Shown: one piece after another, positions 11,191 through 50,017 of the stretch | Layout of the letters: every line of letters starts with the position of its first letter | Position numbering within the stretch: position 1 is the stretch's first letter | DNA from: Clostridia bacterium | GTDB lineage: Bacteria > Bacillota > Clostridia > Oscillospirales > CAG-272 | Reading direction: 5' to 3' | Length of the DNA: 64,000 nucleotides | Assembly: GCA_017501245.1 (NCBI GenBank) | Contig: JAFVXI010000030.1 | Span: 7,821 to 71,820 of the forward strand | The notes under the pieces: model-generated | Seen by the model: only the letters and a program-made list of their open reading frames with translations | The model's database searches: none | Told to the model about the DNA's origin: nothing | Translations under genes and position numbers: made by a program

Positions 11191-11230
11191 CCCGGCGCCG
11201 TAAGGAGTATATACACACTTCGTGTGATAT
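11191..11230 (+). repeat. Single unit of the GATAT-linker hairpin-array family
   Basis: CCGGCGCCGTAAGGAGTATATACAC differs by one base from 16381-16405, followed by hairpin CACAC-TTC-GTGTG. Confidence 0.7.
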
Positions 11231-11272
11231 AAAAAGGACAGATCGCCCGAACGAAGGCGCTCTGTCCTTTTT
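11231..11272. terminator. Bidirectional intrinsic terminator
   Basis: AAAAAGGACAGA...TCTGTCCTTTTT between convergent genes. Confidence 0.8.
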
Positions 11273-11315
11273 ATGTCTATTGCCCCTAAATGGGGCGAAA
11301 AATTAAACCCGTGTC

Positions 11316-15799: not shown

Positions 15800-16297
15800 G
15801 TGGAGGATAACGTGGATATTTTGACAGTTTCCCTATTTGGAAATCGAGAGATAACCGATCTGAGGAGGGTTTCTACACGACTTAAGCCCTTGATTGAGGA
15901 GCTGATGAGGGGTGAGATGTACGTCAGCTTTCTAATCGGTCGAAACGGCGAGTTTGACGAGTATGCTGCTTCAATAATAAAAAAGACAAAGAGTGAGTGC
16001 GGGGCGGAAAATTGCGAGATCTCGCTAGTGCTACCGTATTCAGTGGCAGACGTTGATTATTACGAGAGGTATTACGATAGCGTTATTATCCCTGATAAGT
16101 CCTGCTCCGTGCATGTTAAAGCTGCCATAACAGCGAGAAACAGATGGATGATAGACAGATCGGATATGGTCATTTTTTACGTGGAGCGCACGGGTGGAGG
16201 AGCTTATGACGCTATGAAATATGCTAAGTGCCGTAACAAAAGATGCATAAATCTATATGATGACGGAAAAAGCGGAGAAGATGCCCTGGATGGTTGA
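15800..16297 (+). CDS. SLOG-superfamily (YpsA/DUF1273-like) protein
   Basis: FGNR, GRNGEFD, LVLPY, RNRWMIDRSD..IFYV..GGA..AMKYA pattern; AT-richer than flanks. Confidence 0.7.
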   Translation: MEDNVDILTVSLFGNREITDLRRVSTRLKPLIEELMRGEMYVSFLIGRNGEFDEYAASIIKKTKSECGAENCEISLVLPYSVADVDYYERYYDSVIIPDKSCSVHVKAAITARNRWMIDRSDMVIFYVERTGGGAYDAMKYAKCRNKRCINLYDDGKSGEDALDG

Positions 16298-16380
16298 CGA
16301 TAACCTGAAAAAAGATGCATAAAAAAGATAAAGTGAGGATACCTCCGGGATATCCCCACTTTTTTCTTTGACGTGCTATG

Positions 16381-16560
16381 CCGGCGCCGTAAGGCGTATA
16401 TACACGGCAGAGCCGTTGATATACAACACTCCGTGTTGATGATATACACGGCAGAGCCGTGATGATATACAACACTTTGTGTTGATGAGATACAGCGACA
16501 GTCGTCGCTGATGATATACAAGGCTGTCGCCTTGATGTAATTCACGGCGGAGCCGGGACA
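16381..16560 (+). repeat. Array of about 7 short hairpins joined by GATGATATAC linkers
   Basis: Hairpins ACGGC-AGA-GCCGT, AACAC-TCC-GTGTT, ACGGC-AGA-GCCGT, AACAC-TTT-GTGTT, AGCGAC-AGTC-GTCGCT, AAGGC-TGTC-GCCTT, plus a degenerate last unit. Confidence 0.9.
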
Positions 16561-16584
16561 GATAGTTTGCCCGGGTGGAGCAAA

Positions 16585-19500
16585 TTATCTGTCGAAGAGG
16601 TGATCGATCATTATGATCGCATAGTCGCCGCCGTAGCCGTAATCCTTAAAGGCGGTGAGGGTGAGATAATAGGTCATGCCTGCCTCAAGCTCGAGCGAGA
16701 AGCTGCAATTAGAGCCATAGAACAGGTCGTTGCCGTTCTCGTCGGTGACAGTGATCTCGATCTGATTGTAGTTAGCGCTGTTGACGTAGATCTCCCACAT
16801 CGACGCCGTCTCGGGGGTGAGCATAACGGTGAAGCTTGCGCCCTCGGGAAGATACTCGACGATGAACTCATCGGAGGTGATGCCTGCGCCTGCGATAGCT
16901 TCGGAGCCGGGCAGATCACCAAAGGTGATAGCGTAGTCGAAGCTGCTGTCCGCACCGTCGGGCACGAAGGAGATGCGTGCATCGTACTGATCGGGCTCAA
17001 AGCCTATCTCTCTTGCCGCCTCCTCAACGATGGCGATCGGGATCGAAAGACCGACGAAGCTTCCATCGTAGTAGGTGAATGCGGACTCCTCGATAAAGAG
17101 CACGAGCTGATCGGTTCCATCCTCGAGAGGAGTGTGGAGAATGATGCTCACCATAGGAGTGAAGGAGGCATAGGTGTCCATAAAGTAGCCGATAACGTAG
17201 TTTTCGCCGCCTCCGAGCTTGTCGGTCAGATCCTCCATAACGATGCTGCCGTCCGCTCCGTTAACGTTCTGCAGAGCGCATCTCTGGCAGAAGTAGAGTC
17301 CGTTGGGAAGCATTATCCAGCTGTGGCCGAGGGGACTGACGGGCTGGTTATCAAACTCGGTGTCGCAGAAGTAGCAGGCTAAGCCCTCGACGCCCCACTG
17401 CGTGCAGGTGGGAGGAACGATAGTCGTCCAGCTTGTGTCGTGATACTCGTTGTTCTCATTGAGGTAGGACTCACCGTCCGAATACTCGTGCAGGACGTCG
17501 TAGCGGCAGATGCAGCCGTCCTCGTAGAGGTAGGTGTACTTATGCCAGTTTCCGTAAGCGTCCTCGTAGTATTCAGAGAGGTCGAGCATTCTTACGTTGT
17601 TTCCGTGGTGGTAGAAGCTCCTCTCATAGATCTCACGGGAGATGAAGCCCTCGGAGCCCGTCTGAGTTACGGTCATTCTGTAGCCGTCCACGCCTACGGG
17701 AGCGTCGATAAGCTCGTAGGTATAGTTGAGCTCGGTGTAGGTCACGCTGCCGTCAGCGTGGAGGATCTCGGTCCTCTCCTGGGAAATGGGGTCTTGAAGG
17801 TGAGCGTTTATCACCTCGTTAAGGTCGGTCCTCGTTGTCGTGCGCTTGACCGCTCTGCCGTTGTCAAGAGCGTTATACCAGGTTTGAGTGTATACCCATC
17901 CGCCAAGCTCGTTGTAATACTGCTCGGACTCAACGTAGCTGTCGCAGAGGGTGCAGGTCTCTCTCCAGTGGTATCTGCCGTTGCCGTCGGATTCGCTCGT
18001 GTGCTCCATTTCCTTATGGTAGACGTCGCGCTCGAGCTCGAAGGTTATCTCCTCAATGCAGCTGCCGTCAGCCTCGTTATATCCGAGCTGGAGGGTCATA
18101 TAGCGAACGACCGTGCAGTTGCCCTCGTAGACCCAATAGGTAGCATGTCTGTATGCGAAGCCGCATTTCTCGGGATCGGTAACCGCACAGACGCTCTTAT
18201 AGAAGTAAGACCAATAGCCGTGGTAGCCGTCGGCATGCTCCTGCGAGGCGTTGATCGCATCATCTATCCACCAGACCTCGCCCTGCTCGTCAAACTCGCA
18301 TCTCGCATCATATACGTTGCAGTTATAGGAGCGTCCGCAGGGGCAGAAGGCGACGACGAGCTTGCCGCCGCAGACCGAGCCGTATTTCTCGAGGTCATAT
18401 TCGGTTTTGATAACCAGATTGTGCCAGTAGATCTGCTCCTCGTAGCACTCTCCGCAGACCGAGCAGCTGTAATAGATGTTGATTCCGCTCTCACAGCCCG
18501 CATCGGGATCGTGGAGGTAATAGGAGACGTCATAATCGTGAGCAAGCTCGCTATTTTCGTACGAGTCCTCGCAGATAAGCTCGCCGCCAACCGAAACGTA
18601 GTAGTCGTTGTTATAGTATCTCGTGCAGCCATCGATGCGGTTGAGATAGCGTGTGGTCTGATATCTGAAGCCGCACTCACAGCTGTAAGCCTCGACCATG
18701 TAGATCACGCCGTCCTCGACGTAGGTGTTGGAGCTGTGGCGAGCGTTGCCACAGATATTTACGTTGTAGTGGGAGTTTGCGCCGCAGGGGCAGAACTCAT
18801 GGTTTACCCAGCCTCCGCAAGCGCCGTAGCTCGTGAGGTCGATCTCCTCACGGAAGGTGTGGTGACCGTAGAGGGTCTCCTCCTCGGAGTGATCGCAGTT
18901 CCTACAGGTCCTCGAGATGATAAAGCCGTCGTCGCAGCTATCGCCGAGGAGCTTGTAGGTCACGTCGAAGTCGTGCTCGTAGTGGCTTCCGTTAGTCCAT
19001 TCAAGATTCTCTACGACCGAGACGTCGCCGACCCTGACGTTGATAACGGTGTCTGTCTCGACCTTACAGCCGTAGTAGCTGCGCACGTCGTCAAACTCAA
19101 TATAGAGTCCGCACCCTCTGCAGTGGTAGTAGTGGAGGTCGTGCTGGATTCCGTACTCGTCGTGGTTGACCTCGTGCCACTCTTCAAGATCGCAGCCGGA
19201 ATAGATGCCCTCAAGGCTCCTCCAGCCGTTCTCGCCGCAGGCACAGGAGTAGAGGTAGATGTAGCCGCCCGAGCAGGTGCCGTAGTCGGCAAGGCGGATG
19301 GTCTTCCTCAGCACGGTGTTGTGGCCGTAGCTCTCGTGGCTCGACGATTCGCCGCAGTCGGGGCAGTATCTATGCTCGGTATAGCCGTCGGTGCAGCTCT
19401 CGCCGTAAAGCTCGTAGGTGTATTCGAAGCTATGGTCGGTCAGATGATAGGACCAGGAGACGTCGAGCAGAAGCTCACCGTCACGGTAGTAGCGTCTGAT

Positions 19501-22500
19501 CTCGTTAACGGGAATAGTGCAGCTTGCGTCCTTCTCTCCGTATTCGGAGCGGCATTCTCTCGTAGCGCCGCAAATCATGCAGAACTGCTGGCCGCCCTTG
19601 CCCTCCTCATACTTGCCTTCCTCGTCGTAGCTCTCGGAGACCCACTGACAGCCGGGCTCGCCGTTCACGGAGGTGACGGTGCCGCAAATACGGCAAACGC
19701 CCTTCTCTCCCCATCCGGGGCAAAGACCGTACTCAGCGAAGTTGAACTCGACCCACTCGGTGGAGTGTCCGGAGGACTCGTAAGAATAGCTGTTGCCGCA
19801 GGCGGAGCAGGTCGCAACCACGGTATAACCGTCATCGCAGCTATCTCCGTTGAGCGTGTACTCGTATACGTAGTTATGGCTGCTGTTGTGGCTGCTCTCG
19901 CTGCTCTCGGCTATAAGGGTGTCGCCGATGTAAACGTAGTAGAAGGTATATATAGTGCTTACGCAGGGGCTCACCGACTCAGCGTACATATCGCCGACGA
20001 TGCGCAGACCGCACTTGGGGCAGTAAAGCTCCTGGTACATATGAGGTCTGCCGAATTCGTCAACGAACTGATCCATCTTAGGCTCGAAGGGACAAACCTG
20101 AGTGACGTCGTTGAAGGAGGTGATCTTGCCGCATCTCGTGCAGGCTCTGACGTAGATCTCGGAGCCGCAGGTCATGTCGGCTATGCCGAGGGTGGTCTCG
20201 GCGGTGCTGTGGTTCTCGTTCCTCATCTCGCCGCCGGCTTCGAAGACGGTCTCGCCGTCCTCGGTGTAGAACCTGTAGTCAACGCTCATAACCTGTACAC
20301 AGGGCGAGGGCTGAGACATGATCATATAAGCCTCAACGAGGATGCCGCAGTCACGGCACTTGCCGAACATATGCTGATAGGGCATACCCTCGGGGGTCAT
20401 GCCGGTCTCACCGGAGATGGTCTCGATGTCGCAAAGAATAGCGGAGGTCATCGGGTCAAAGGTCTTGACGAGTCCGCATTCGCAGGACATATAAGGAAGC
20501 TTGGATGCGCAGTAGCCGAGCTCGCCGAAGTCAAATACGAGATTGAGGGTAGGCTCGTGCGTGCAGGAGAGATCCTTGCCGCAGTCGGCGCAAGTGTTTC
20601 CAACCTTGTTATGCTCGATCCTCGTCTGCTCATCCTTGAAGGAGCAAAGAAGCTTACCGCCTACGTAGTAGCTCTCGGTGACAGTCGTGGTAAATGCGCA
20701 GTTTTCGTCCTTCTCACTGACAGAGACGGTGACGGTCCTTTCAGCGCCGCATACCGAGCAGACGTATCTTTCGGCGTCCTCACCCTCGACAAGAACCCAG
20801 TCGCAGGTGGTCTTGATATCGGTGTAGACCTTCTCGTCGCAGAATGCGCAGCCCTCGTAGCGCACCTGTCCTGCGCACATTCCAAGGCTCTCGAGATCGG
20901 TGTATCCGCTGCCAAGATAGTGGCCGAGGATGGTGATGGTGGTAGTGAAGTCGCAATTCACACAGCGGGTAACCATAGAGTGGCCGTCCTCGCACTTGTC
21001 GCCAAGGCTGACAAGCTCCTCGGTCAGCTCGTGCTCGGAGCTGCTCACATCCGTGGTAACGGTGAAGAGCTCGTTGCCGTCTATGCTTACGGTAACGGTA
21101 GACGCCTTGATCACAAGGCAGAGCTCGCTGTAGACGAAGCTTTCTTCCTTAATGGTAAGGCCGCACTTCTCACAGCTCTTTACGGTAACGGTATAGGGAT
21201 TGCCGTTGTCGTCGAGATACTCCTCGGTGACGACGTTGAAATCACACTTGGTTCTTACGTCATCAAGAGAGAGGATCTCGCCGCATTCCGTACAAGCGGT
21301 AACATAGATATCGCCGCCGCAGATCTTGCCCTTAAGTCCGTATGCGCCGCTGATGACGTTGCTGTGGTTGTCGGAGCTTCCCATGGGGGTCTCGTTGAAG
21401 GTGGCGATAGCCTCGCCGTCCCTACCGATAATAGAAAGGCAGCCAAAGATGGGAGTGCTGCAGTCGGCGTATACCGACGAGCCCTCGTAGGTGGTCTCGA
21501 TGGAAAGTCCGCACTTATCGCAGTGGCTCTTCGTCGAGGAGATGGCGGTGATAGGGTTCATATGCTCGTCGATGACGATCTCTGCGCTCGACTTGACTAA
21601 AGTGAAGTCGCAATTGACCGTGCTTTCCTCAAGGTTGAGCTGCTTATTCTCGCCGCACTTGCAGGACCAGTAAACGAGCATACCGTCGCAGTAGCCGAGC
21701 TCGCCGAGGTCGATAGCGTTCATCACTTCGGGGATGTGGTTGCAGGGTGCGTTTGCGGTGTTGCCGCAGTCGATGCAGACGCCGTCAACGTAGTAGTGAT
21801 CGCCGGTAGGAGCGGTCTTTTCTACCATAACGTAGCCGCATACGCAGGTGTAAGCGATCTCGCCCTCGCTTGCGCAGGTCGGACGCTTGAGGATGGAAGA
21901 GCCCTCGAAGATATGCTCCTCCTCGGTTGCCTTGCCGCCACAGCCCGAGCATTCAAGCCAGTGGCCGTGCTTGTTGAACTTATATCCGTTATCAAACTTA
22001 TGCTCAAGGAGCTTTCCGTTTTCGCTGATAGCGGAGGAATAGGTGATGCCGTTGTAGACGAGCTTAGCGGTGTACTCGGTCTTGCCCTCTTTCGTACAGG
22101 TCGCAACGTGCTCGCGCACGGATGCCACGACGGTCTCTACTATTCTCTCGCCGCAGCCGTTCTCACAGGTGAGGATGACGGTAGCGGAGAGCTTATCCTC
22201 AGCGAAGCTCCACTCGTCGGAGAAGACGTGGGAGAGAGGATCGGTGAAGCCGTCCTTGTAGCTGTATCCGCAAAGGACGCATTCGTGGAGTCTGTATCCG
22301 CCGGCGGCACAGGTGGGCTCTACCGTCGAATGCTCGTAGGAGTGGTTAAGTCTGGGGGTAGTAACCGTGATCTTAGAGCCGCACTCGCCGCAGACGCTGG
22401 TGACGGAGCCGACCGCCTCACAGGTAGCGTCGATGCTCTCGGTGATCTCGTAGTTATGTCCGAAGGCCGAAATTCTCTCGTAGTGGGAGTAGCCGCAGCC

Positions 22501-25500
22501 TCTCGTACACTCAACGAAGGAGTGGCCGTCCTCGGTGCAGCTTGCGGGAGTGGTAGTCGCAGAGAGGGAATGGCCGTAAGCCTTAACGACGTCGTTCTTC
22601 TCGTAGTAAGCGCATCTCGAGCAGCGATGAAGGGTATAGCCGTCGGTCGTGCAGGTCGCCTCTACGGTCTTGTCGAGCCAGATATGTCCGTAAAGCGCAC
22701 AGCGCTCAGCGGGAGTAAGGCTCGTGACGGTGTAGTAGGAGAAGTGATTGGTCCTGAAGGTGACGTAGCCGCCCGCATAGGTCGCCTCGATGGAAACGGG
22801 AGTTCCGTCCGAAACGTACCAGATAGCGATGGAGTCAACGTCCTCGCCCTCAGCGGGAGTGTAGGGGATAGTTACGGTGACGTAGTTGTCGCCGAAGTCG
22901 GTGATGGCGTTGCCACCCTCGGTGATGGTAAAGTTGTAGATCGGGCTGTCGCCGAGCTGAGCCTTCTGCTCCTCGGTGAGGAGCTTCAGAGCCTTCTCGA
23001 GGTCCTCGCCCTCAAGCGTGCCTGCAGAGACGGTGACGTCCTTGTTGGCGATGGCGCCGCCCTCACCTGCGATCTCGCCGAGGTTAAGGCTTGCGTCCTT
23101 GAGTGCAACCTCTCCGGATGCGGAAAGGTCGGAGGAGCCGAGCGATGCGGAGGTGTCGGCAGAGGCGTCGATGACCTCCTTGGTTGCGCCGCATTCGTCA
23201 TGCTGACAGGTGTAGGTCCTGACGTTTCCGACGAGGACGCCCTCGTCCCACTTATGGTTGTCGTTTTTGGGGATGGTGGTTCTTGAGCCGTACTCGCAGA
23301 GCTGGCAGTCGTAGCGCTTGGAGCCCTCGGACGAGCAGGTCGCCTCGATCTCGATGGTTGCGATCTCGGTGTGTCTTGTAATGGTCTGACCGTCTACGAG
23401 CTCGCCGCAGACGTTACACTTGAACTTCTGAATGAACGTACAGGTTCCGATAGCCTCCTCGATGGCCTCAACGCCCTTGATATCGTGGCCGAGGGCAGGT
23501 GCGGTCTCGTTCATATAGGAGCCGCCGCATCTCTCGCAGGCGTAGGTCTCGCTTGCGGGTGCGGAGCAGGTTGCGTCCTCGGACTTAATGAGGACGTAGC
23601 TATGGCCGAGCTTTTCCTCGCTCTCGCCGCATCTCTCGCAAGTGTGGCCACTCTCACAGGTCAGATCCCCGTCCCAGCTGTGGCCGAGGGGGTCGGTCTC
23701 GTCAGCGGTGTAGGTCTCGCCGCAGACCGAGCAGCCGTAGGTGGTGTAGCCGCCCTCGGTGCAGGAGGGCTCGGTGATCTCGGTGTACTGGCTGTGTCCG
23801 ATGGGAGCGATAGCCTCGGTCATCTCGCCGCCGCACTTCGAGCAGGAATAGGTGAGAACACCCGCCTCGGTGCAGCCGGGCTGCTTCGTGATGATGCCAT
23901 CAGACCATGCGTGGCCGGGCTCCTCGCCGTAGTCGCCGCCGCAGACCGAGCAGATAGCCCTGTCGGTGCAGGTGGTCTCGCCGCCTGAGCAGCTCTCGCT
24001 CTCGGTGTGGTTGCGCTCTGTGTCGTTGATGCAGTATCTGACGTGGATTCCGTCCTGCGACTGCCATTCGGTCCATACGTGGCCGAGCAGAGTTCCCTCT
24101 GCCTCAAAGCTCTCGTCGCTTCTGTCGCCACAGTTAGCGCAGGAGTAGTAGTAATATGCGTTAGTCTCGCAGGTCGCCGCCGAAGCAAGATATTTTGCAT
24201 CGGTGCTCATACTGTCGAAGCTGTGCTTCAGGGTCTGTCCGTAGGTGCTTCCGCAAACCTCGCAAACTGCCTTATCTGCGCAGGTTGCCTCGCCGCCCAC
24301 GTGGCCGAGAGCCTCGCCCTCGGTGTAGTCACATTTTGCGCAGCGGACGGGCTCGGTGCAGTTTGCCTCGAGCAGCTCGTGGCCGAGCGCCTCGGTCTCC
24401 TCAGCGGTATAGCTGTCGCCGCAGACGGAGCAGACGTAGGTGGTGTAGCCGCCCTTATCGCAGGTGGGCTCGGTAACGACAGCCTCGTAATTATGTCCTG
24501 CCGCCTCGGTCTCCTCAGCGATATAGCTGTCGCCGCAGGCGGAGCAGACGTAGGTGGTGTAGCCGCCCTTATCGCAGGTGGGCTCGGTAACGACAGCCTC
24601 GTACTTATGTCCTGCCGCCTCACCCTCGGTAGCGCCGCACTTCTCGCAGGTCATAGGCTCGGTGCAGGTCGCATCCTTCCAGCTATGATCGAGCAAGCTG
24701 CCGTACTTAGCGCCGCAGGCCTCGCAGACTGCCTGCTCTGTGCAGGACGCCTCGCCGCCGTAGCAAACGCCGCTCTCGGTGTGGGAGTTATTTCTTACGC
24801 AATATCTGATGTGCTTTCCGTCGCCGATGGGCTGCCATTCGCCAAACTTACAGCCGACGGGGTCGGTCTCATCGGAGGTGAAGGAATGTGCGCACACAGC
24901 GCAGGTGTAGGTGGTATATCCGCCCTCGAAGCAGGAGGGCTCGGTAACGATCGCCTCGTAGTCATGGTCTGCAAGCTCGCCGTACTTAGCGCCGCAAGCC
25001 TCGCAGACTGCCTGCTCGGTGCAGGATGCCTCGCCGCCGGCGCAGGGTGCGGTCTCGTTATGAGAGGCGTCTCTCTCGCAGTATCTTACGTGCTGGTCGC
25101 CGCCGATGGGCTGCCACTTGCCAAACTCACAGCCGAGTGCATCGGTCTCATCGGCAGTGTAGCTGTCGCCACAAACGGAACAGGTATAAGTGGTGTAGCC
25201 ACCCTCGAAGCAGGTGGGATCGGTAACGACAGCCTCGTAGCTATGTCCCTTAGGCGGTGTGTAAACGACGCCACAGACCTCGCAGGCAGCGCCGACCTTA
25301 CAGGTTGCCTCGCCGCCGGAGTGACCGAGCGCAGCTACCTCGTCAGCGGTGTAGCTGTCGGAGCAGACGGAGCAGGTATAGGTGGTATAGCCACCCTCAG
25401 TACAGGTAGGCTTGGTTACGACAGCCTCGTAGCTGTGTCCTGCCGCCTCGGTCGCATCAGCAGTGTAGCTGTCGGAGCAGACGGAACAGGTATAGGTGGT

Positions 25501-26949
25501 ATAGCCACCCTCAGTACAGGTAGGCTTAGTTACGACAGCCTCGTAGCTGTGTCCTGCCGCTTCGGTCGCATCAGCAGTGTAGCTGTCGGAGCAGACGGAA
25601 CAGGTATAGGTGGTATAGCCGCCCTCTGTGCAGGTGGGCTTGGTTACGACGGCACCGTACTCATGATCTGCAACCTCACCGTAAGCAGTGCCGCAGTCAG
25701 TGCAGACGGCAGGCTTCGTGCATGTCGCCTTACCGCCCGAGCAGGGCTTGGTTTCGGTGTGGCTGTTGTTTCTGATACAGTATCTGATGTGGTTGCCGTC
25801 ACCGAGCGACTGCCATTCGCCATATTCACAGCCGAGAGCCGCAACCTCGTCGCCCTTATAGCTGTCGCCACAAACGGAGCAGACGTAGGTGGTGTAGCCG
25901 CCCTCGGTACAGGTAGGCTTGGTAACCGTCGACTTGTAGCTGTGTCCTGCCGCCTCGGTCTCCTCGGCGGTGTAGCTGTCGCCGCAGGCGGAGCAAACGT
26001 AGGTGGTGTAGCCGCCCTTATCGCAGGTAGGCTTGGTAACCGTCGCCACGTATGCGTGCTTGAGGGGCTCGCCCTCGGTAGCGCCGCAAACTGTACAGGT
26101 CTTGGGTGCGGAGCAGGTAGCGTCAGCGAAGCTATGCTTCAAGAGCTCGCCGTACTTGCCGCCGCAAACGATACAGGATCCCTGCTCGGTGCAGCTGGGT
26201 GTGCCGCCAAGGCAGAAGGATGCCTGAGTGTGAGAGGGATCGTTTTTGCAGACCCTTGAGTGAGTGCCGTCGCCGACGGGCGTCCAGTCACCCCACTCGC
26301 ATTCAAGCTTGTTGCCCTCGGTCTCGCCGCAGACCGTGCAGGTCTTGGGTGCGGAGCAGGTAGCGTCAGCGAAGCTATGCCCGCCGAGCTCGCCGTAGGG
26401 CTCGCCGCAAAGCGAGCAAACAGCCTTATCTTTACAGTTAGCGGTGCCGCCGGTGTGCTTAAGGGGCTCACCCTCGGTCTCGCCGCAGACCGTACAGGTC
26501 TTGGGGGTGGTGCAGGTAGCGTCAGCGAAGCTATGCTCGCCGAGCTCGCCGTAGGGCTCGCCGCAAAGCGAGCAAACAGCCTTATCCTTGCAGTTTGCGG
26601 TTCCGCCGGTGTGCTTAAGGGGCTCACCCTCGGTCTCGCCGCAGTCCTTACAGGTCTTGGGAGTGGTGCAGGTAGCGTCGGCAAACGAATGTGCCGAATA
26701 GTCGCCGTACTCCTCTCCACATCTGTCACAAACGGCCTTCTCGGAGCAACTTGCCTTGCCGCCCACGTGTCCGAGAGCCTCGCCCTCGGTCTTGCCGCAG
26801 ATCTCACAGTGCTTAGGCTCGGTGCAGGTTGCATCGGCCCACTCATGCTCACAGCCAAGCAGGCCCGCAAGCACGTCGCAGCCCGTCAAGCTACATAAAG
26901 CAGCAAGGATTACGAGCAGCACGAGAAGAAGTGTCAATGATCTCTTCAT
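16585..26949 (-). CDS. Giant (3454 aa) Cys/His-repeat surface lipoprotein with central HFS-motif domain
   Basis: GGAGG RBS, signal peptide with LTGC lipobox, dozens of H...PTC..G.....CxxCG repeats, FRTNHFS at 22738-22746, host-like codon usage. Confidence 0.85.
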   Translation of the reverse strand: MKRSLTLLLVLLVILAALCSLTGCDVLAGLLGCEHEWADATCTEPKHCEICGKTEGEALGHVGGKASCSEKAVCDRCGEEYGDYSAHSFADATCTTPKTCKDCGETEGEPLKHTGGTANCKDKAVCSLCGEPYGELGEHSFADATCTTPKTCTVCGETEGEPLKHTGGTANCKDKAVCSLCGEPYGELGGHSFADATCSAPKTCTVCGETEGNKLECEWGDWTPVGDGTHSRVCKNDPSHTQASFCLGGTPSCTEQGSCIVCGGKYGELLKHSFADATCSAPKTCTVCGATEGEPLKHAYVATVTKPTCDKGGYTTYVCSACGDSYTAEETEAAGHSYKSTVTKPTCTEGGYTTYVCSVCGDSYKGDEVAALGCEYGEWQSLGDGNHIRYCIRNNSHTETKPCSGGKATCTKPAVCTDCGTAYGEVADHEYGAVVTKPTCTEGGYTTYTCSVCSDSYTADATEAAGHSYEAVVTKPTCTEGGYTTYTCSVCSDSYTADATEAAGHSYEAVVTKPTCTEGGYTTYTCSVCSDSYTADEVAALGHSGGEATCKVGAACEVCGVVYTPPKGHSYEAVVTDPTCFEGGYTTYTCSVCGDSYTADETDALGCEFGKWQPIGGDQHVRYCERDASHNETAPCAGGEASCTEQAVCEACGAKYGELADHDYEAIVTEPSCFEGGYTTYTCAVCAHSFTSDETDPVGCKFGEWQPIGDGKHIRYCVRNNSHTESGVCYGGEASCTEQAVCEACGAKYGSLLDHSWKDATCTEPMTCEKCGATEGEAAGHKYEAVVTEPTCDKGGYTTYVCSACGDSYIAEETEAAGHNYEAVVTEPTCDKGGYTTYVCSVCGDSYTAEETEALGHELLEANCTEPVRCAKCDYTEGEALGHVGGEATCADKAVCEVCGSTYGQTLKHSFDSMSTDAKYLASAATCETNAYYYYSCANCGDRSDESFEAEGTLLGHVWTEWQSQDGIHVRYCINDTERNHTESESCSGGETTCTDRAICSVCGGDYGEEPGHAWSDGIITKQPGCTEAGVLTYSCSKCGGEMTEAIAPIGHSQYTEITEPSCTEGGYTTYGCSVCGETYTADETDPLGHSWDGDLTCESGHTCERCGESEEKLGHSYVLIKSEDATCSAPASETYACERCGGSYMNETAPALGHDIKGVEAIEEAIGTCTFIQKFKCNVCGELVDGQTITRHTEIATIEIEATCSSEGSKRYDCQLCEYGSRTTIPKNDNHKWDEGVLVGNVRTYTCQHDECGATKEVIDASADTSASLGSSDLSASGEVALKDASLNLGEIAGEGGAIANKDVTVSAGTLEGEDLEKALKLLTEEQKAQLGDSPIYNFTITEGGNAITDFGDNYVTVTIPYTPAEGEDVDSIAIWYVSDGTPVSIEATYAGGYVTFRTNHFSYYTVTSLTPAERCALYGHIWLDKTVEATCTTDGYTLHRCSRCAYYEKNDVVKAYGHSLSATTTPASCTEDGHSFVECTRGCGYSHYERISAFGHNYEITESIDATCEAVGSVTSVCGECGSKITVTTPRLNHSYEHSTVEPTCAAGGYRLHECVLCGYSYKDGFTDPLSHVFSDEWSFAEDKLSATVILTCENGCGERIVETVVASVREHVATCTKEGKTEYTAKLVYNGITYSSAISENGKLLEHKFDNGYKFNKHGHWLECSGCGGKATEEEHIFEGSSILKRPTCASEGEIAYTCVCGYVMVEKTAPTGDHYYVDGVCIDCGNTANAPCNHIPEVMNAIDLGELGYCDGMLVYWSCKCGENKQLNLEESTVNCDFTLVKSSAEIVIDEHMNPITAISSTKSHCDKCGLSIETTYEGSSVYADCSTPIFGCLSIIGRDGEAIATFNETPMGSSDNHSNVISGAYGLKGKICGGDIYVTACTECGEILSLDDVRTKCDFNVVTEEYLDDNGNPYTVTVKSCEKCGLTIKEESFVYSELCLVIKASTVTVSIDGNELFTVTTDVSSSEHELTEELVSLGDKCEDGHSMVTRCVNCDFTTTITILGHYLGSGYTDLESLGMCAGQVRYEGCAFCDEKVYTDIKTTCDWVLVEGEDAERYVCSVCGAERTVTVSVSEKDENCAFTTTVTESYYVGGKLLCSFKDEQTRIEHNKVGNTCADCGKDLSCTHEPTLNLVFDFGELGYCASKLPYMSCECGLVKTFDPMTSAILCDIETISGETGMTPEGMPYQHMFGKCRDCGILVEAYMIMSQPSPCVQVMSVDYRFYTEDGETVFEAGGEMRNENHSTAETTLGIADMTCGSEIYVRACTRCGKITSFNDVTQVCPFEPKMDQFVDEFGRPHMYQELYCPKCGLRIVGDMYAESVSPCVSTIYTFYYVYIGDTLIAESSESSHNSSHNYVYEYTLNGDSCDDGYTVVATCSACGNSYSYESSGHSTEWVEFNFAEYGLCPGWGEKGVCRICGTVTSVNGEPGCQWVSESYDEEGKYEEGKGGQQFCMICGATRECRSEYGEKDASCTIPVNEIRRYYRDGELLLDVSWSYHLTDHSFEYTYELYGESCTDGYTEHRYCPDCGESSSHESYGHNTVLRKTIRLADYGTCSGGYIYLYSCACGENGWRSLEGIYSGCDLEEWHEVNHDEYGIQHDLHYYHCRGCGLYIEFDDVRSYYGCKVETDTVINVRVGDVSVVENLEWTNGSHYEHDFDVTYKLLGDSCDDGFIISRTCRNCDHSEEETLYGHHTFREEIDLTSYGACGGWVNHEFCPCGANSHYNVNICGNARHSSNTYVEDGVIYMVEAYSCECGFRYQTTRYLNRIDGCTRYYNNDYYVSVGGELICEDSYENSELAHDYDVSYYLHDPDAGCESGINIYYSCSVCGECYEEQIYWHNLVIKTEYDLEKYGSVCGGKLVVAFCPCGRSYNCNVYDARCEFDEQGEVWWIDDAINASQEHADGYHGYWSYFYKSVCAVTDPEKCGFAYRHATYWVYEGNCTVVRYMTLQLGYNEADGSCIEEITFELERDVYHKEMEHTSESDGNGRYHWRETCTLCDSYVESEQYYNELGGWVYTQTWYNALDNGRAVKRTTTRTDLNEVINAHLQDPISQERTEILHADGSVTYTELNYTYELIDAPVGVDGYRMTVTQTGSEGFISREIYERSFYHHGNNVRMLDLSEYYEDAYGNWHKYTYLYEDGCICRYDVLHEYSDGESYLNENNEYHDTSWTTIVPPTCTQWGVEGLACYFCDTEFDNQPVSPLGHSWIMLPNGLYFCQRCALQNVNGADGSIVMEDLTDKLGGGENYVIGYFMDTYASFTPMVSIILHTPLEDGTDQLVLFIEESAFTYYDGSFVGLSIPIAIVEEAAREIGFEPDQYDARISFVPDGADSSFDYAITFGDLPGSEAIAGAGITSDEFIVEYLPEGASFTVMLTPETASMWEIYVNSANYNQIEITVTDENGNDLFYGSNCSFSLELEAGMTYYLTLTAFKDYGYGGDYAIIMIDHLFDR
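25340..25660 (-). repeat. Intragenic tandem repeat, about 3 x 114 bp (38 aa)
   Basis: GGTGGTATAG recurs at 25381, 25495, 25609; encodes HSYEAVVTKPTCTEGGYTTYTCSVCSDSYTADATEAAG. Confidence 0.9.
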
Positions 26950-27209: not shown

Positions 27210-27403
27210 GCTGATCCGCCCACCATCTGCGCTTCGCCTCTTGCCGATCCGCCCCCATCTGCGCTTCGCCTCTTGCCGATCCGCCCCCATCTGCGCTTCG
27301 CCTCTTACTGATCCGCCCCCATCTGTGCTTCTCCTCTTGCTGATCCGCCCCATCTGCGCTTCGCCTCTTGCTGATCCGCCCCACCTGCGCTTCGCCTCTT
27401 GCT
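27210..27403. repeat. Tandem repeat, 6 x 31-33 bp
   Basis: Unit GCYGATCCGCCCC(C)ATCTGCGCTTCGCCTCTT starts at 27210, 27243, 27275, 27307, 27339, 27370. Confidence 0.95.
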
Positions 27404-35374: not shown

Positions 35375-35403
35375 TTGACAAGCTTCTTATAATATGCTAA
35401 AAT
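35375..35403 (+). promoter_or_regulatory. SigA promoter of the valS leader
   Basis: TTGACA (35375) N17 TAAAAT (35398) with extended TG. Confidence 0.75.
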
Positions 35404-35409
35404 ATATCG

Positions 35410-35674
35410 ACCCCGAGGAGGAGTAATATATAGGAACGCTAAAGAGAGAGCGCGGTCGGTGTGAGCGCTTGCGTGCCGTGTATGAAGGTAGCCTCGCTGT
35501 ATCCGAGAAGAACGGTGGCATATAGCCGCTCACTAGACCTCGGCGTCCGCCGCGCCCGGCGAGAAATAAGGGAAGCCAAGCTTCCGAACCTTGGGTGGTA
35601 CCGCGTTACTAACGCCCCGAGAGATCAGGTATGGATGATATCTCATGCCGTGATTTTCTCGGGGCTTTCTTTTT
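35410..35674 (+). ncRNA. T-box riboswitch (Val)
   Basis: AGAGA box, specifier GTA at 35488-35490, T-box AACCTTGGGTGGTACCGCG at 35587-35605, terminator GCCCCGAGA...TCTCGGGGC plus T-run; upstream of valS. Confidence 0.92.
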
Positions 35675-35975
35675 GGGATAAACCGTCCACAGCTTCGTTA
35701 AAGCTTCGGCTCGTCGCCCTCGGAGTAGGTATCTACACCGTCGGGCTTCTCGCTCGCTTTGCCTTGCTGTAAACACTTTCTCCTGCAAAACGAGTTTTTT
35801 GGATAAGCTGTCTACGGCTTCGTTAAAGCTTCGGCTTGTCGCCCTAGGAGTAGGTATCTACACCGTCGGGCTTCTCGCTCGCTTTGCCTTGCTGTAAACA
35901 CTTTCTCCTGCAAAACGAGTTTTTTGGATAAGCTGTCTACGGCTTCGTTAAAGCTTCGACTTGTCGCCCTAGGAG
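35670..35975. repeat. Tandem repeat, about 2.4 x 125 bp (GTAGGTATCTAC family)
   Basis: GCTTCGTTAAAGCTTCG starts at 35692, 35817, 35942. Confidence 0.93.
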
Positions 35976-35980
35976 CTTGC

Positions 35981-36096
35981 ATACAGCGACAACTGTCGCT
36001 GATGATATACACGACTAAGGTCGTGATGATATGCACTCACAAAGTGAGTGATGATATACAGCGACGGACGTCGCTGTATATCAGGCTGAAGCGCCT
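35981..36096 (+). repeat. Array of 4-5 hairpins joined by GATGATATRC linkers
   Basis: AGCGAC-AACT-GTCGCT, ACGAC-TAAG-GTCGT, ACTCAC-AAA-GTGAGT, AGCGAC-GGAC-GTCGCT. Confidence 0.9.
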
Positions 36097-36193
36097 ATGA
36101 GATGCTGCGTGCCTGTCCGCTCGGGATAGCACGCACCCCATACCCCCGTAAGATTATTTAATTTGCCGGAAAACGGCGAAAGGATATAGAAAA

Positions 36194-46460: not shown

Positions 46461-48116
<1,656 letters not shown>

Positions 48117-48551: not shown

Positions 48552-48805
48552 AAACGCCCCGAAGGGGCATATCGCTTGTCTGGGGCAAATATCGCATTTT
48601 GGACGTGAGTGGCCAAAATATATCGCAGATCACCCTATGTGATCTATATCGCTGCGCACCTGCGCACAGATACTCTTTGTCTGTTAAACGCCCCGAAGGG
48701 GCATATCGCTTGCCCACAGGGCAAATATCGCATTTTGGACGTGAGCGATCAAAATATATCGCAGATCATCCTATGTGATCTATATCGCTGCGCACCTGCG
48801 CACAT
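48552..48805 (-). repeat. Two copies (134-bp period) of a five-hairpin array with GCGATAT linkers
   Basis: Plus strand: GCCCC-GAA-GGGGC, TTGYC..GGCAA, ATTTTG..CAAAAT, AGATCA..TGATCT, TGCGCA-CC-TGCGCA, each separated by ATATCGC; copies start at 48552 and 48686. Confidence 0.9.
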
Positions 48806-48821
48806 ACGGTAGCACCCACCT

Positions 48822-49559
48822 CTATTCCATCTCATGCCTCAGCTTTTCGATGATCTTTTTTTCCTCTCTTGACACCTTGACCTGCGATAGCCCGAGCAGC
48901 CTTGCCACCTCGCACTGGGACAGGTCCTTGAAGTATCTGAGGATGATTATCCTGCGCTCGGTTTCCCCGAGCCTCTCTATGGCGAGGCGCAGGGCGAGGC
49001 GGTCGAAGCAGCGCTCCTCCTCCCCCTCCTCGGCAACCGTCGAGCCCAGTGTAGCTCCCTCGTCGCCCTCGTAGATGCATTCCTCAAGCGACCTGACCGG
49101 CGACTCGGAAAAGAGTGCGGAGGCGGCATCCTCCATCGAGACGCCGAGCGCCGCCGCCAGCGATGAAACGTCGCACCGCTCACCGAGGTTCAGCCGCCTC
49201 TCTCTTTCCTTATTTAAGAGGGCAGAGAGCCGCTTTTCCGCTCTTGACACCTTGATTATCCCGTCGTCGCGCAGGAAGCGGCGTATCTCACCGAATATCA
49301 GCGGCACCGCATAGGTAGAGAAGGCGCAGCCCCTCTCGGTGTCAAAGGTGTTTATCGCCTTGACCAGCCCGACCGTCCCGCAGTCGACCAGCTCGCCCAT
49401 GTCCGCTCCTCTATCCTTAAATCTCGCCGAGATGGAGTAAACGAGCGGTATATTCAGCCGCACCAGCTCCTCTCCCGCCTCCTTGTCGCCGCCTCTGTAG
49501 CTTTTTATCAGCTCGGGGTTTTTGTCGTAGCCTGCCCCTCTTTTTAACCCTTGTGGCAC
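48822..49559 (-). CDS. sigF: Sporulation sigma factor SigF
   Basis: FSTYAVPLIFGEIRRFLRDDGIIKVSR, LRYFKDLSQ..VA..LGLSQVKVSR; third gene of the spoIIA operon. Confidence 0.9.
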   Translation of the reverse strand: MPQGLKRGAGYDKNPELIKSYRGGDKEAGEELVRLNIPLVYSISARFKDRGADMGELVDCGTVGLVKAINTFDTERGCAFSTYAVPLIFGEIRRFLRDDGIIKVSRAEKRLSALLNKERERRLNLGERCDVSSLAAALGVSMEDAASALFSESPVRSLEECIYEGDEGATLGSTVAEEGEEERCFDRLALRLAIERLGETERRIIILRYFKDLSQCEVARLLGLSQVKVSREEKKIIEKLRHEME

Positions 49560-50017
49560 GTCTTCTCCTCGGCGTAGGGCTTTAGATTTTTCCGCAAAAG
49601 AACCGTCGTCCCCCTCCCGAGCTTAGACTTTACGCTCATCGAGTCGGTGAAGCTCTCCATAACGAGAAATCCCATGCCGCATCTCTGCCCGGGGTCGCCC
49701 GTCGTAAAGCTCGGGGTCCTCGCACGGTCGATATCCTCGATGCCACAGCCGGTGTCTGCGATCTCGACGGTTACCTCCCTGTTATCGTATATCCTGGCAG
49801 ATATGTAAATAAAAGTAGGGATATTTTGGCTATAACCCTTATATCCATGCACAATGGAGTTCGTCACCGCCTCGCTTATAGCGCATCTAAGGTCGCAAAG
49901 CTCCTCGACCGTCGGGTCAAGCTCTGCGATAAATGCGGAGATGCAGGCTCTGGCAACCGCCTCGTTTTCTCCTATCGCTCTTAAGCGCAGCTTCATCTCA
50001 TTTATTATCCTTTTCAT
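49544..50017 (-). CDS. spoIIAB: Anti-sigma F factor
   Basis: ENEAVAR, SEAVTNSIVHGY, DTGCGI, GMGFLVMESFTD. Confidence 0.93.
   Translation of the reverse strand: MKRIINEMKLRLRAIGENEAVARACISAFIAELDPTVEELCDLRCAISEAVTNSIVHGYKGYSQNIPTFIYISARIYDNREVTVEIADTGCGIEDIDRARTPSFTTGDPGQRCGMGFLVMESFTDSMSVKSKLGRGTTVLLRKNLKPYAEEKTCHKG

Follow-up and report, generated by a model that had tools for sequence, protein, structure and literature searches.

The stretch of DNA analysed here is a 64,000-nt piece of a genome labelled Clostridia bacterium (GCA_017501245.1, contig JAFVXI010000030.1; below, the window, with all positions counted within it), and its plus strand carries two arrays (16396-16555 and 35981-36082) and a single unit (11207-11230) of a repeat whose units are perfect hairpins of variable sequence, with a constant linker, GATGATATAC, on their flanks. 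Upstream of array 1 lies a plus-strand open reading frame (ORF; 15800-16297), and from the positions of hairpin and ORF the array itself falls between the stop codon of a giant minus-strand ORF and a terminator-like hairpin at 16330-16362. The single unit comes after the stop codon of an M16 peptidase gene (11148, plus strand) and before a bidirectional terminator hairpin (about 11236-11275); throughout the window the arrays stand 30-60 nt from stop codons or terminators. Their parts, with the hairpins that border array 1, are as follows.

11191..11230, plus strand: single unit, with a head at 11191-11206, GTATATAC at 11207-11214, the hairpin ACACTTCGTGT at 11215-11225 and a truncated linker, GATAT, at 11226-11230.
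16330..16362, minus strand: terminator-like hairpin with a T-run on the minus strand, and a plus-strand T-run after it too.
16381..16403, plus strand: head of array 1, a 4-bp hairpin with a GTAA loop, then GTATATAC replacing the first linker.
16404..16555, plus strand: array 1, seven perfect hairpins of 12-16 nt.
16404-16416, 16425-16437, 16448-16460, 16471-16483, 16494-16509, 16520-16533 and 16544-16555, plus strand: the hairpins of array 1.
16415/16417-16424, 16438-16447, 16461-16470, 16484-16493 (GATGAGATAC), 16510-16519 and 16534-16543 (degenerate), plus strand: the linkers of array 1.
16557..16593, no strand assigned: long hairpin adjoining the stop codon (16585) of the 3454-aa minus-strand ORF; right boundary of array 1.
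35981..36082, plus strand: array 2, with ATAC at 35981-35984 and four hairpins at 35985-36000, 36011-36024, 36035-36049 and 36060-36075.
36001-36010, 36025-36034 (GATGATATGC) and 36050-36059, plus strand: the linkers of array 2.
36083..36135, plus strand: degenerate tail of array 2, with a weak hairpin, the linker-like ATGAGATGC at 36097-36105 and a 7-bp large-loop hairpin at 36106-36135.

Array 1 starts with the palindromic 8-mer GTATATAC at 16396 and goes on with linker-like 10-mers at 16415, 16438, 16461, 16484, 16510 and 16534, which are GATGATATAC or its near variants TGATATAC, GATGAGATAC and GATGTAATTC; a 46-nt block of two units stands in it twice and makes up its first four hairpins. 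The long hairpin at its right boundary lies outside the repeat family. At the far end of array 2 a reverse-complement linker fragment, GTATATC (36076-36082), lengthens the last hairpin to 13 bp, and the degenerate tail beyond it is of uncertain membership in the family. The single-unit locus and 16382-16407 have a 26-nt head in common, with one mismatch. We found that after refinement the true unit reads ATAC-hairpin-GATG, and that the unpaired spacer is 8 nt long (ATGATATA) rather than 10, since each linker's final C pairs with the G that opens the following linker. The hairpins mostly begin with A and end with T, and the predicted folds are rows of hairpins with 8 unpaired bases between them. 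An earlier sequence-only reading of this DNA had described a fixed linker joined to a variable hairpin whose pairing is kept, the same grammar in the second array, in the single unit and in a minus-strand GCGATAT array (48552-48805), and a stem, AGCGAC/GTCGCT, that returns with changing loops. All of these details are present in the sequence, the stem standing at 16494, 35985 and 36060 with the loops AGTC, AACT and GGAC respectively, and the covariation is significant, as described below.

The hairpin-and-linker pattern is real and goes beyond chance. GATGATATAC with at most one mismatch occurs 14 times in the window, eight of them within the two arrays, as compared with 3.2 +/- 1.9 in 100 shuffles, none of which reaches 14. 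Similarly, nine plus-strand matches, all in the three loci, and two minus-strand matches are found for 'AT[AG]C + perfect hairpin of at least 4 bp + GAT', where 50 Markov-1 sequences gave a mean of 0.88 and a maximum of 3 with both strands combined. As DNA, both strands of 16381-16560 have strongly negative folding z-scores (-7.3 and -6.8), and 35976-36140 folded as RNA has one of -8.0; in each case 0 of 200 shuffles fold equally well. A generic search of the window for chains of any hairpins was dropped as noisy, shuffled sequence giving chains of up to 7 hairpins.

The pattern is also not confined to this genome. A scan of reference genomes for two perfect linkers 9-24 nt apart returned at least 123 loci, a lower bound on the distribution of the family and one that favours well-kept arrays, as two adjacent perfect linkers were needed for selection; 118 of the 123 loci listed are labelled Clostridia (Acutalibacteraceae, Oscillospiraceae, Eubacteriales or 'Clostridia bacterium'). 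By our own estimate, which takes a uniform base composition, about 17 chance matches are expected in the whole collection, and loci L012, L033, L067 and L091, in which the spacers are not hairpins, look like such matches. At least 12 assemblies have two or more loci, the window itself has three in 64 kb, and all copies are intergenic. Across the loci listed the linker is almost invariant between genomes and it is the inter-linker sequence that changes: the 359 inter-linker slots hold 221 distinct sequences, and an end-anchored Watson-Crick stem of at least 3 bp is found in 311 of them (87%), as against 172 of 7180 shuffled slots (2.4%). These stems are 3-9 bp long (mode 5), plus one constant C-G pair, with a base that is usually C-G, A-T, A-T; the variable segments measure 9-21 nt and recur between genomes, and linkers recur every 19-31 nt, most often every 23 (111 of 414 spacings). 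Arrays range from 1 to 12 units, repeats of multi-unit blocks are seen elsewhere as well (triplets in L037, runs in L078), and some arrays (L037, L074, L117) lie immediately before a ribosome-binding site.

In an alignment of 54 distinct 13-nt units, chosen solely by their linkers on both sides and containing no window sequence, 96.9% of cells are paired (69.3% in shuffles), 89 of 324 cells carry two-sided changes (20.1 expected) and the covariation score is 0.70 (0.15 in shuffles), values that 0 of 500 shuffles reach; one-sided changes are found in 0 cells. A covariance model built from other-genome units alone, R1, matches the window at 16461-16493 (52.3 bits, E 9e-8), 16415-16447 (47.2 bits), 36001-36034 (43 bits, E 4e-6) and 16510-16543 (24 bits, E 0.011), and on the window it gave nothing further of note besides array units. 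Moreover, four of the ten distinct window hairpins are letter-identical to hairpins in other genomes' arrays, and from these together with the R1 matches we take the window arrays to be members of the family. The 11-nt hairpin of the single unit, ACACTTCGTGT, is likewise present in arrays of other genomes. Of the loci listed, BLAST places L065 closest to array 1, and the array of L065 likewise opens with a TAAGG-N-GTATATAC head; between the window and the loci listed, the arrays alone match.

The sequence-only reading had looked to further copies and to a covariance model, and could give the element no family name, and the searches agree with it on each of these points. Rfam 15 at its gathering cut-offs gives 0 matches on the window, and 24 matches in 15 of the loci, none overlapping an array; in E-value mode the best scores on the arrays are snoU61 for array 1 (16.7 bits, cut-off 55) and sR7 for array 2 (16.9 bits, cut-off 37). 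A link to Nop-domain proteins, which it had suggested testing, or to C/D-box RNAs fits poorly, the C/D-box matches being far under threshold; the weak archaeal ones come from a UGAUGA inside the linker. With blastn, array 1 has no match in plasmid or phage collections, and no description of the family was found in the literature searched, from which subscription journals and supplements were out of scope. The two arrays and the single unit are members of a large unnamed family of extragenic modular repeats in uncultured Clostridia.

In other genomes we found that the repeat is often built into a larger, two-armed composite. Of 139 linker clusters in the loci listed, 87 run reverse-then-forward, 0 forward-then-reverse, 51 in a single orientation (many of these being cut by contig ends) and one is mixed. 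Seventy-three non-identical composites can be oriented by their flanks and both arms could be counted in 72, of which 43 have 3+3 linkers. A composite is about 190-250 bp long and consists, in order, of an A-run, a hairpin with a T-run (a bidirectional terminator), ATCC, a hairpin X, about three reverse linker-and-hairpin units, a small central hairpin, a stretch complementary to the 5' arm and loop of X, about three forward linker-and-hairpin units, and GATT. In 46 of 70 composites X and the centre are complementary over 10 nt or more, and at least six covarying sequence variants keep this complementarity. Two copies on one contig (L044) are 87% identical, with linkers and loops in common, and their terminator, X and centre stems differ coordinately.

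The position of the composite is precise. With an adequate left flank, 36 of 70 composites follow directly on the CCA of a tRNA gene called by ARAGORN on the same strand, with 14 isotypes represented; in all 36 the tRNA end is 49-61 nt before the first linker and the A-run follows without a gap (for example L005:1900-2300 and L023:1880-2250). A further 21 have CCA and an A-run at the equivalent place and no called tRNA, several of these being recognisable tRNA 3' fragments that could be leftovers of island integration, and the last 13 have neither. One terminator stem type stands behind several isotypes and one isotype before several stem types, and since stem types and isotypes are not matched, the terminator is part of the repeat and not of the tRNA gene. 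At the other end the hexamer TTGATT (31) or GTGATT (17), formed by the last T or Ts of the final hairpin and a truncated linker, closes 48 of 55 scorable composites, and in 18 of the 55 a spacer of exactly 17 nt leads on to a -10-like hexamer, other spacers of 8-29 nt occurring at most three times each; the composite end supplies the -35 of the next promoter. Where the right flank is adequate (41 composites) the next ORF is co-directional in 30 and opposite in 7, flank ORFs being simple longest-ORF calls. The same kind of count for solo arrays (upstream gene on the same strand 11, opposite 5) allows no conclusion with numbers this small and ORF calls this crude and unreliable. The window has no tRNA gene and no two-armed composite, and its copies are solo arrays like those of L065, L037, L034 and L074.

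Several further observations concern these flanks. The left boundary of the composite, TTATCCA, is near-invariant (alignment A1, columns 5-12), its reverse complement stands beside a T-run in each 125-nt repeat upstream of array 2 (window 35796-35810), and it recalls the core of a DnaA box. Family loci are flanked by a Gut-1 RNA (74 bits, L018:879-955), a lysine riboswitch (103 bits, L060:2549-2715) and a 5S rRNA followed by tRNAs (L044:180-296). The flanking ORFs scanned (106 of the 259 listed, from 2-kb flanks at 45 loci) are ordinary housekeeping genes, one large serine recombinase (L032) and two PF05635 proteins ('23S rRNA-intervening sequence protein'), the latter beside the repeat at L010:1607-1957 and L016:1514-1933, and their presence at 2 of the 45 loci may be coincidence.

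Does the pairing serve DNA or RNA? Structured RNAs tolerate G-U pairs freely. In the unit alignment G-U pairs number 0 in 324 cells, and across the local hairpin pairs of an alignment of 39 composites we count (our own sum of the per-pair table) about 209 two-sided changes versus 7 one-sided. The internal mismatches of 217 distinct slots are likewise asymmetric, being 7 A.C versus 1 G.T in the GATGATATAC sense, which on the GTATATCATC strand is 7 G.T versus 1 A.C. The loops have a polarity of their own: in sense orientation 54 of 114 triloops are TNC and 3 are GNA, with a closing C-G pair in 106, and among 70 tetraloops 36 are TNNC and 1 is GNNA; this polarity is seen in both arms of the composite, each read by its own orientation. 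Loops of this kind in the sense mean hairpins of the type cGNAg and cGNNAg on the GTATATCATC strand, and the exact 7-mer GCGNAGC is found in 13 of 184 hairpins. According to a review of DNA mini-hairpins (PMC13037366), GNA alone of the 64 GCNNNGC triloops gives an extraordinarily stable hairpin (Tm 70-76 C), GNNA tetraloop hairpins are similarly stable where a T4 loop melts at 33 C, and such hairpins occur at single-strand initiation signals (the phage G4 origin, ssiA of RSF1010) and N4 early promoters.

Transcription around the repeat was considered next to this. The composite sits between a terminator and a promoter, and on neither strand was a promoter of its own seen. In the window, array 1 is antisense to the transcript of the 3454-aa ORF, as it lies between that minus-strand stop codon and the terminator at 16362-16330, and the single unit is sense in a 3' region before a terminator. 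Array 2 is sense in the 5' leader of valS, whose start is at 36194, behind the following features.

35375-35403, plus strand: promoter-like site, 11 of 12 matches, with TG.
35401-35622, plus strand: T-box leader, 80.9 bits, E 9e-18, under the Rfam cut-off of 93; promoter-like site, T-box and its terminator region all fall within 35375-35675.

No other plus-strand promoter-like site was seen before valS, so array 2 most likely lies in the valS leader RNA. Upstream of arrays 1 and 2 the only promoter-like site is that of the T-box, some 600 nt upstream of array 2, and the promoter-like site inside array 1 is a linker look-alike. The gap between the T-box terminator and the valS start, about 520 nt, is unusually long for a T-box leader, and holds a 125-nt tandem repeat (2.4 copies, 35670-35975, 95% identical) together with array 2. 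The units have no T-runs; the 8-10 nt between hairpins and the distance to the stop codon would be compatible with termination by hairpin clusters at array 1 and the single unit, array 2 being in a 5' leader. GC skew, mostly negative on the plus strand, would place the GTATATCATC strand of the three copies on the lagging-strand template, a hint only, with three loci and a skew that is gene-driven.

The missing wobble pairs, the mismatch asymmetry, the loop polarity and a placement indifferent to the direction of transcription point to DNA rather than RNA, and we hold, with a confidence slightly short of even, that the hairpins act at the DNA level, probably single-stranded. The unit consists of ATAC, a short perfect palindrome (a basal constant C-G, usually an A-T, 3-6 free pairs and a loop of 3-4 nt) and GATG. 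We propose that the palindromes may be kept as hairpins that form on single-stranded or torsionally stressed DNA, best on the GTATATCATC strand with its very stable cGNAg and cGNNAg loops. The constant linker could then be the sequence-specific handle for a putative trans-acting protein. Through its terminator, a structural or topological buffer and a -35, the composite would act as a boundary, punctuating or insulating, where a heavily transcribed tRNA unit gives way to the gene that follows. Arrays would grow and shrink through unit and block duplication, and differences between stems, by limiting copy-to-copy identity to about 10 nt, would protect the genome against recombination among copies. 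The solo arrays of the window may be derivatives that have spread out and that untranslated regions simply tolerate. What we infer here is that the active form is single-stranded DNA, that a protein partner exists and that the composite insulates, and the module as a whole is put forward as a reading nearly as apt to be right as wrong.

A number of observations weigh against it. The mismatch asymmetry of 7 versus 1 rests on few cases, and in the loops of the window itself (AGA, TCC, TTT, AGTC, TGTC, GGA, AACT, TAAG, AAA, GGAC, TTC) polarity is unclear. All three window copies are probably transcribed, and there an RNA-level effect such as mRNA stabilisation is conceivable. At 5-8 bp the stems are short for extrusion as cruciforms from duplex DNA, and template-switch 'correction' can keep palindromes perfect with no selection at all. 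Folding of whole composites pairs reverse with forward linkers into a rod of four-way junctions; this cross-arm pairing is equally able to serve RNA, its variants are position-specific with mismatches such as C.A, and composites with equal arms number 44 where about 43 are expected from the marginals (our own arithmetic). With neither covariation nor coupling of copy number behind it, pairing of linkers across the arms is a conceivable feature of the element. No candidate for the trans-acting gene was found in the window (Pfam, NCBIfam) or in the scanned flanks, and no protein partner was identified among those ORFs. Lastly, 18 of the 123 loci listed lie within 150 nt of contig ends, an excess that may be due to neighbouring tRNA genes.

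Which other explanations could account for the same data? One is that the repeat is a selfish, REPIN-like element whose units of hairpin and tag are substrates of a single-copy HUH nuclease (RAYT or IS200 TnpA type) encoded elsewhere; this enzyme would bind the hairpin in single-stranded DNA, recognise the constant flank and copy the element to new sites, with a preference for tRNA 3' ends or terminator hairpins. Its dispersal over many loci and genomes would follow, and strand-specific loop polarity with no wobble is what a single-stranded DNA substrate leads one to expect. Unpaired conserved tags beside a hairpin conserved in structure are as in REP recognition (parts of PMC6006769 and PMC3733652), and two inverted arrays recall REP doublets (parts of PMC3116915 and PMC3337134). 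The exact CCA junction in 36 of 36 tRNA-adjacent cases, with one terminator type behind different isotypes, fits as well, as does the covarying inverted repeat of about 11 nt formed by X and the centre, which is like terminal inverted repeats. However, no Y1/HUH transposase was found in the 106 scanned flanking ORFs or in 34 window ORFs, there is no GTAG/CGTC tag, no GC-rich stem of 7 bp or more and no palindrome sequence conserved in the family, and copies within one genome are not near-identical, unlike recent replicative copies; the tRNA 3' fragments are explicable by island integration, and a serine recombinase lies beside the element in L032. We regard this explanation as unlikely. A structured RNA, whether a cis-acting stabiliser or processing platform in untranslated regions, a sponge for a AUGAUAUA-binding protein or a small-RNA precursor, is in our view a weak contender: strong covariation and stable folds speak for it, the window copies lie in likely transcripts (the valS leader behind the T-box; 3' regions upstream of terminators), arrays come directly before the ribosome-binding site in L037, L074 and L117, and the composite folds into its rod of junctions. 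What it leaves unaccounted for are the 0 of 324 cells with G-U and the ratio of about 7 single to 209 double changes, a full-form element placed between terminator and promoter with no visible promoter of its own, window copies in no fixed orientation to transcription, and the Rfam searches, which gave no match and C/D-box-like scores of 9-19 bits against cut-offs of 37-55. For the first three of these reasons the protein-sponge RNA and processed small-RNA arrays that the sequence-only reading had offered fit poorly. Slot lengths also show no reading-frame preference (modulo 3: 138, 135, 83), so the linker AUG opens no conserved mini-ORFs; the specific candidate of mini-ORFs from the linker ATG, in which with 13- or 16-nt hairpins the stop overlaps the next start, was rejected since the lengths do not prefer that frame.

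Two further accounts place the function in duplex DNA or in termination. Under the former, which we consider improbable, the linkers would be binding sites for a regulator, a nucleoid protein or gyrase, in the manner of iterons or operators, and the palindromes would be spacers or anti-recombination devices. In its favour, gyrase and IHF bind the REP/BIME elements of E. coli, the linker hardly varies where the sequence between linkers does, the modal spacing is 23 bp (111 of 414), the forward array abuts a promoter with its end as the -35, and the position is downstream of heavily transcribed tRNA units. Such an account leaves the 87% of perfect-hairpin slots, the polar loops and the C-G closing pair in 106 of 114 triloops unexplained, and at spacings of 19-31 bp the sites would not all be on one face of the helix. 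That the hairpin cluster is a backup terminator, at which RNA polymerase would stop or pause after running past the end of a gene or tRNA unit, is more improbable still. Arrays do follow closely on a stop codon or terminator (at 30-60 nt in the window, and elsewhere directly behind that of the tRNA), and according to PMC8355165 many bacteria have termination sites marked by clusters of hairpins less than 15 nt apart, no more than about 80 nt from a stop codon. But U-tracts are missing from the units, array 2 stands between the T-box and the start codon of an essential gene, a leader in which termination would do harm, the composite's forward array has the same direction and yet adjoins a promoter, and neither the constant linker nor the missing wobble pairs is explained. 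What little weight remains goes to a neutral by-product of slippage and palindrome correction.

The window contains a second family with the same grammar and a different linker.

48552..48805, minus strand: two tandem 136-nt copies, each with five different hairpins (5-7 bp) and four GCGATAT.

This array has the sigF stop codon (48822) on one side and the groES-groEL region on the other; by Pfam domains 48822-50017 is spoIIAB-sigF, and 46461-48089 is the groES-groEL region. The GCGATAT linker occurs in no array of the 123 loci listed, so that this linker type is known from the window only. The sporulation genes spoIIAB-sigF mark the organism as a spore-forming Firmicute. Other repeats were noted in the window. 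Between the radical-SAM and PcrA/UvrD helicase genes (2396-2750) there are tandem repeats of 44 nt (3.0 copies, 96%) and 34 nt (6.3 copies, 89%), and the 34-nt unit holds a constant small hairpin and not the linker-hairpin grammar. At 27210-27403, 260-450 nt upstream of the start of the 3454-aa ORF, a 32-nt tandem repeat (6.1 copies, 93% identical) was seen, with no hairpin content. The large ORFs 16585-26949 (minus strand, 3454 aa) and 52179-56921 (plus strand, 1580 aa) have no Pfam match at E 1e-5, and both have internal DNA repeats, of 114, 156 and 279 nt in the former and of 153 nt, four times, in the latter.

Whatever its function, the family accounts for three odd intergenic stretches in the window, and the valS leader is seen to hold about 500 nt of repeat DNA between the T-box and the start codon. 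Strong covariation alone is no proof of RNA, and in this case absent wobble pairs and loop polarity point to DNA. If the DNA-level module is real, a large clade of gut Clostridia, known almost exclusively through metagenomes, has its tRNA units and many other intergenic sites marked by a repeat of reversed grammar, which would be a natural test of the recognition of structure, not sequence, on DNA; the 10-nt linker would be a bait for the reader protein, and the repeat a practical marker for annotating and binning the genomes that carry it. The wider proposition is that these are a new class of chromosomal signal: mini-hairpins of free sequence on an invariant linker, read by a dedicated single-stranded DNA protein, with a two-armed module at most tRNA-unit CCA ends that couples termination, a replication or topology domain boundary and the next promoter, and with stems kept different against recombination among dozens of copies. 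At present we would rather doubt this than accept it.

How then does the family compare with known systems? In CRISPR arrays, direct repeats of about 23-50 nt alternate with unique, non-palindromic spacers of similar length, usually beside cas genes. The present arrays are alike in that constant and variable segments alternate in tandem, and differ in that an unpaired 10-nt segment is constant and what varies is self-complementary, measures 9-21 nt and recurs between genomes; no cas genes were found in the 34 window ORFs scanned against Pfam. An integron attC site, 57-141 nt long and carrying extrahelical bases, stands singly between gene cassettes and is recognised for recombination as folded single-stranded DNA, its structure being conserved and its sequence free, whereas the hairpins here are perfect, tiny and in tandem, and no integrase was found among the window ORFs or scanned flanking ORFs. 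A CsrB-like sponge gene has its own promoter and terminator, and in the composite the terminator lies with the tRNA and the promoter is directed outwards. BIMEs are made of palindromic units in alternating orientation with set linker motifs, an alternation not seen here, where orientation changes once and 51 clusters keep a single orientation. BOX and STAR modules are conserved in sequence. The present family, in which only the 10-nt linker and the loops are conserved, differs from both, a distinction we make by their descriptions; it resembles BOX of Streptococcus pneumoniae (boxA, variable boxB, boxC) and STAR of staphylococci in being a modular intergenic repeat of Firmicutes with a variable number of modules and a stable predicted structure (parts of PMC3049150 and PMC3532100).

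Closer likenesses are found in two other directions. DNA mini-hairpins (GCGNAGC or GCGNNAGC) share the C-G-closed GNA or GNNA loops present in most units on the GTATATCATC strand, and hairpins of the GNA type are used on single-stranded DNA by primases and N4 RNA polymerase (part of PMC13037366); the known cases are single and stand at phage or plasmid origins or promoters, and are not chromosomal arrays with a constant linker. REP, BIME and REPIN elements are, as here, short extragenic palindromes with unpaired conserved tags, often behind genes and in inverted pairs or arrays, and REP elements have been proposed to work as hairpins of single-stranded DNA, with effects on termination, mRNA stability and supercoiling (parts of PMC3733652, PMC6006769, PMC3116915 and PMC3337134). 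By the definition in parts of PMC6006769 and PMC3733652, a REP has an unpaired GTAG/GTGG or CGTC tag 0-2 nt from the hairpin foot, on one side, whereas the present units have ATAC 5' and GATG 3' (CATC and GTAT on the other strand), a tag on both sides. A basal REP stem is 7-20 nt and fully paired with at least three G/C in its first four pairs (PMC6006769, in part), and here stems are 5-8 bp with an A/T-rich base. REP palindromes are conserved; in this family the 359 slots hold 221 distinct sequences, and in 89 of 324 cells both partners depart from the commonest pair. REP hosts are Proteobacteria with RAYT, as compared with Clostridia here, in which RAYT is absent from the scanned nearby ORFs. 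In a REPIN two inverted REPs with a short spacer between them pair as one long hairpin; inverted arrays are found in 87 of 139 clusters here, their arms being complementary in the linkers alone and the variants lacking covariation. The REP/BIME likeness proposed by the sequence-only reading therefore stands as the closest known logic and falls short at the tag, the GC-rich stem and the conserved palindrome that define a REP. Within what was searched the family is undescribed, and in kind it is one of extragenic palindromic repeats, joined exactly to tRNA 3' ends in its full form and unusual and inverted in its grammar.

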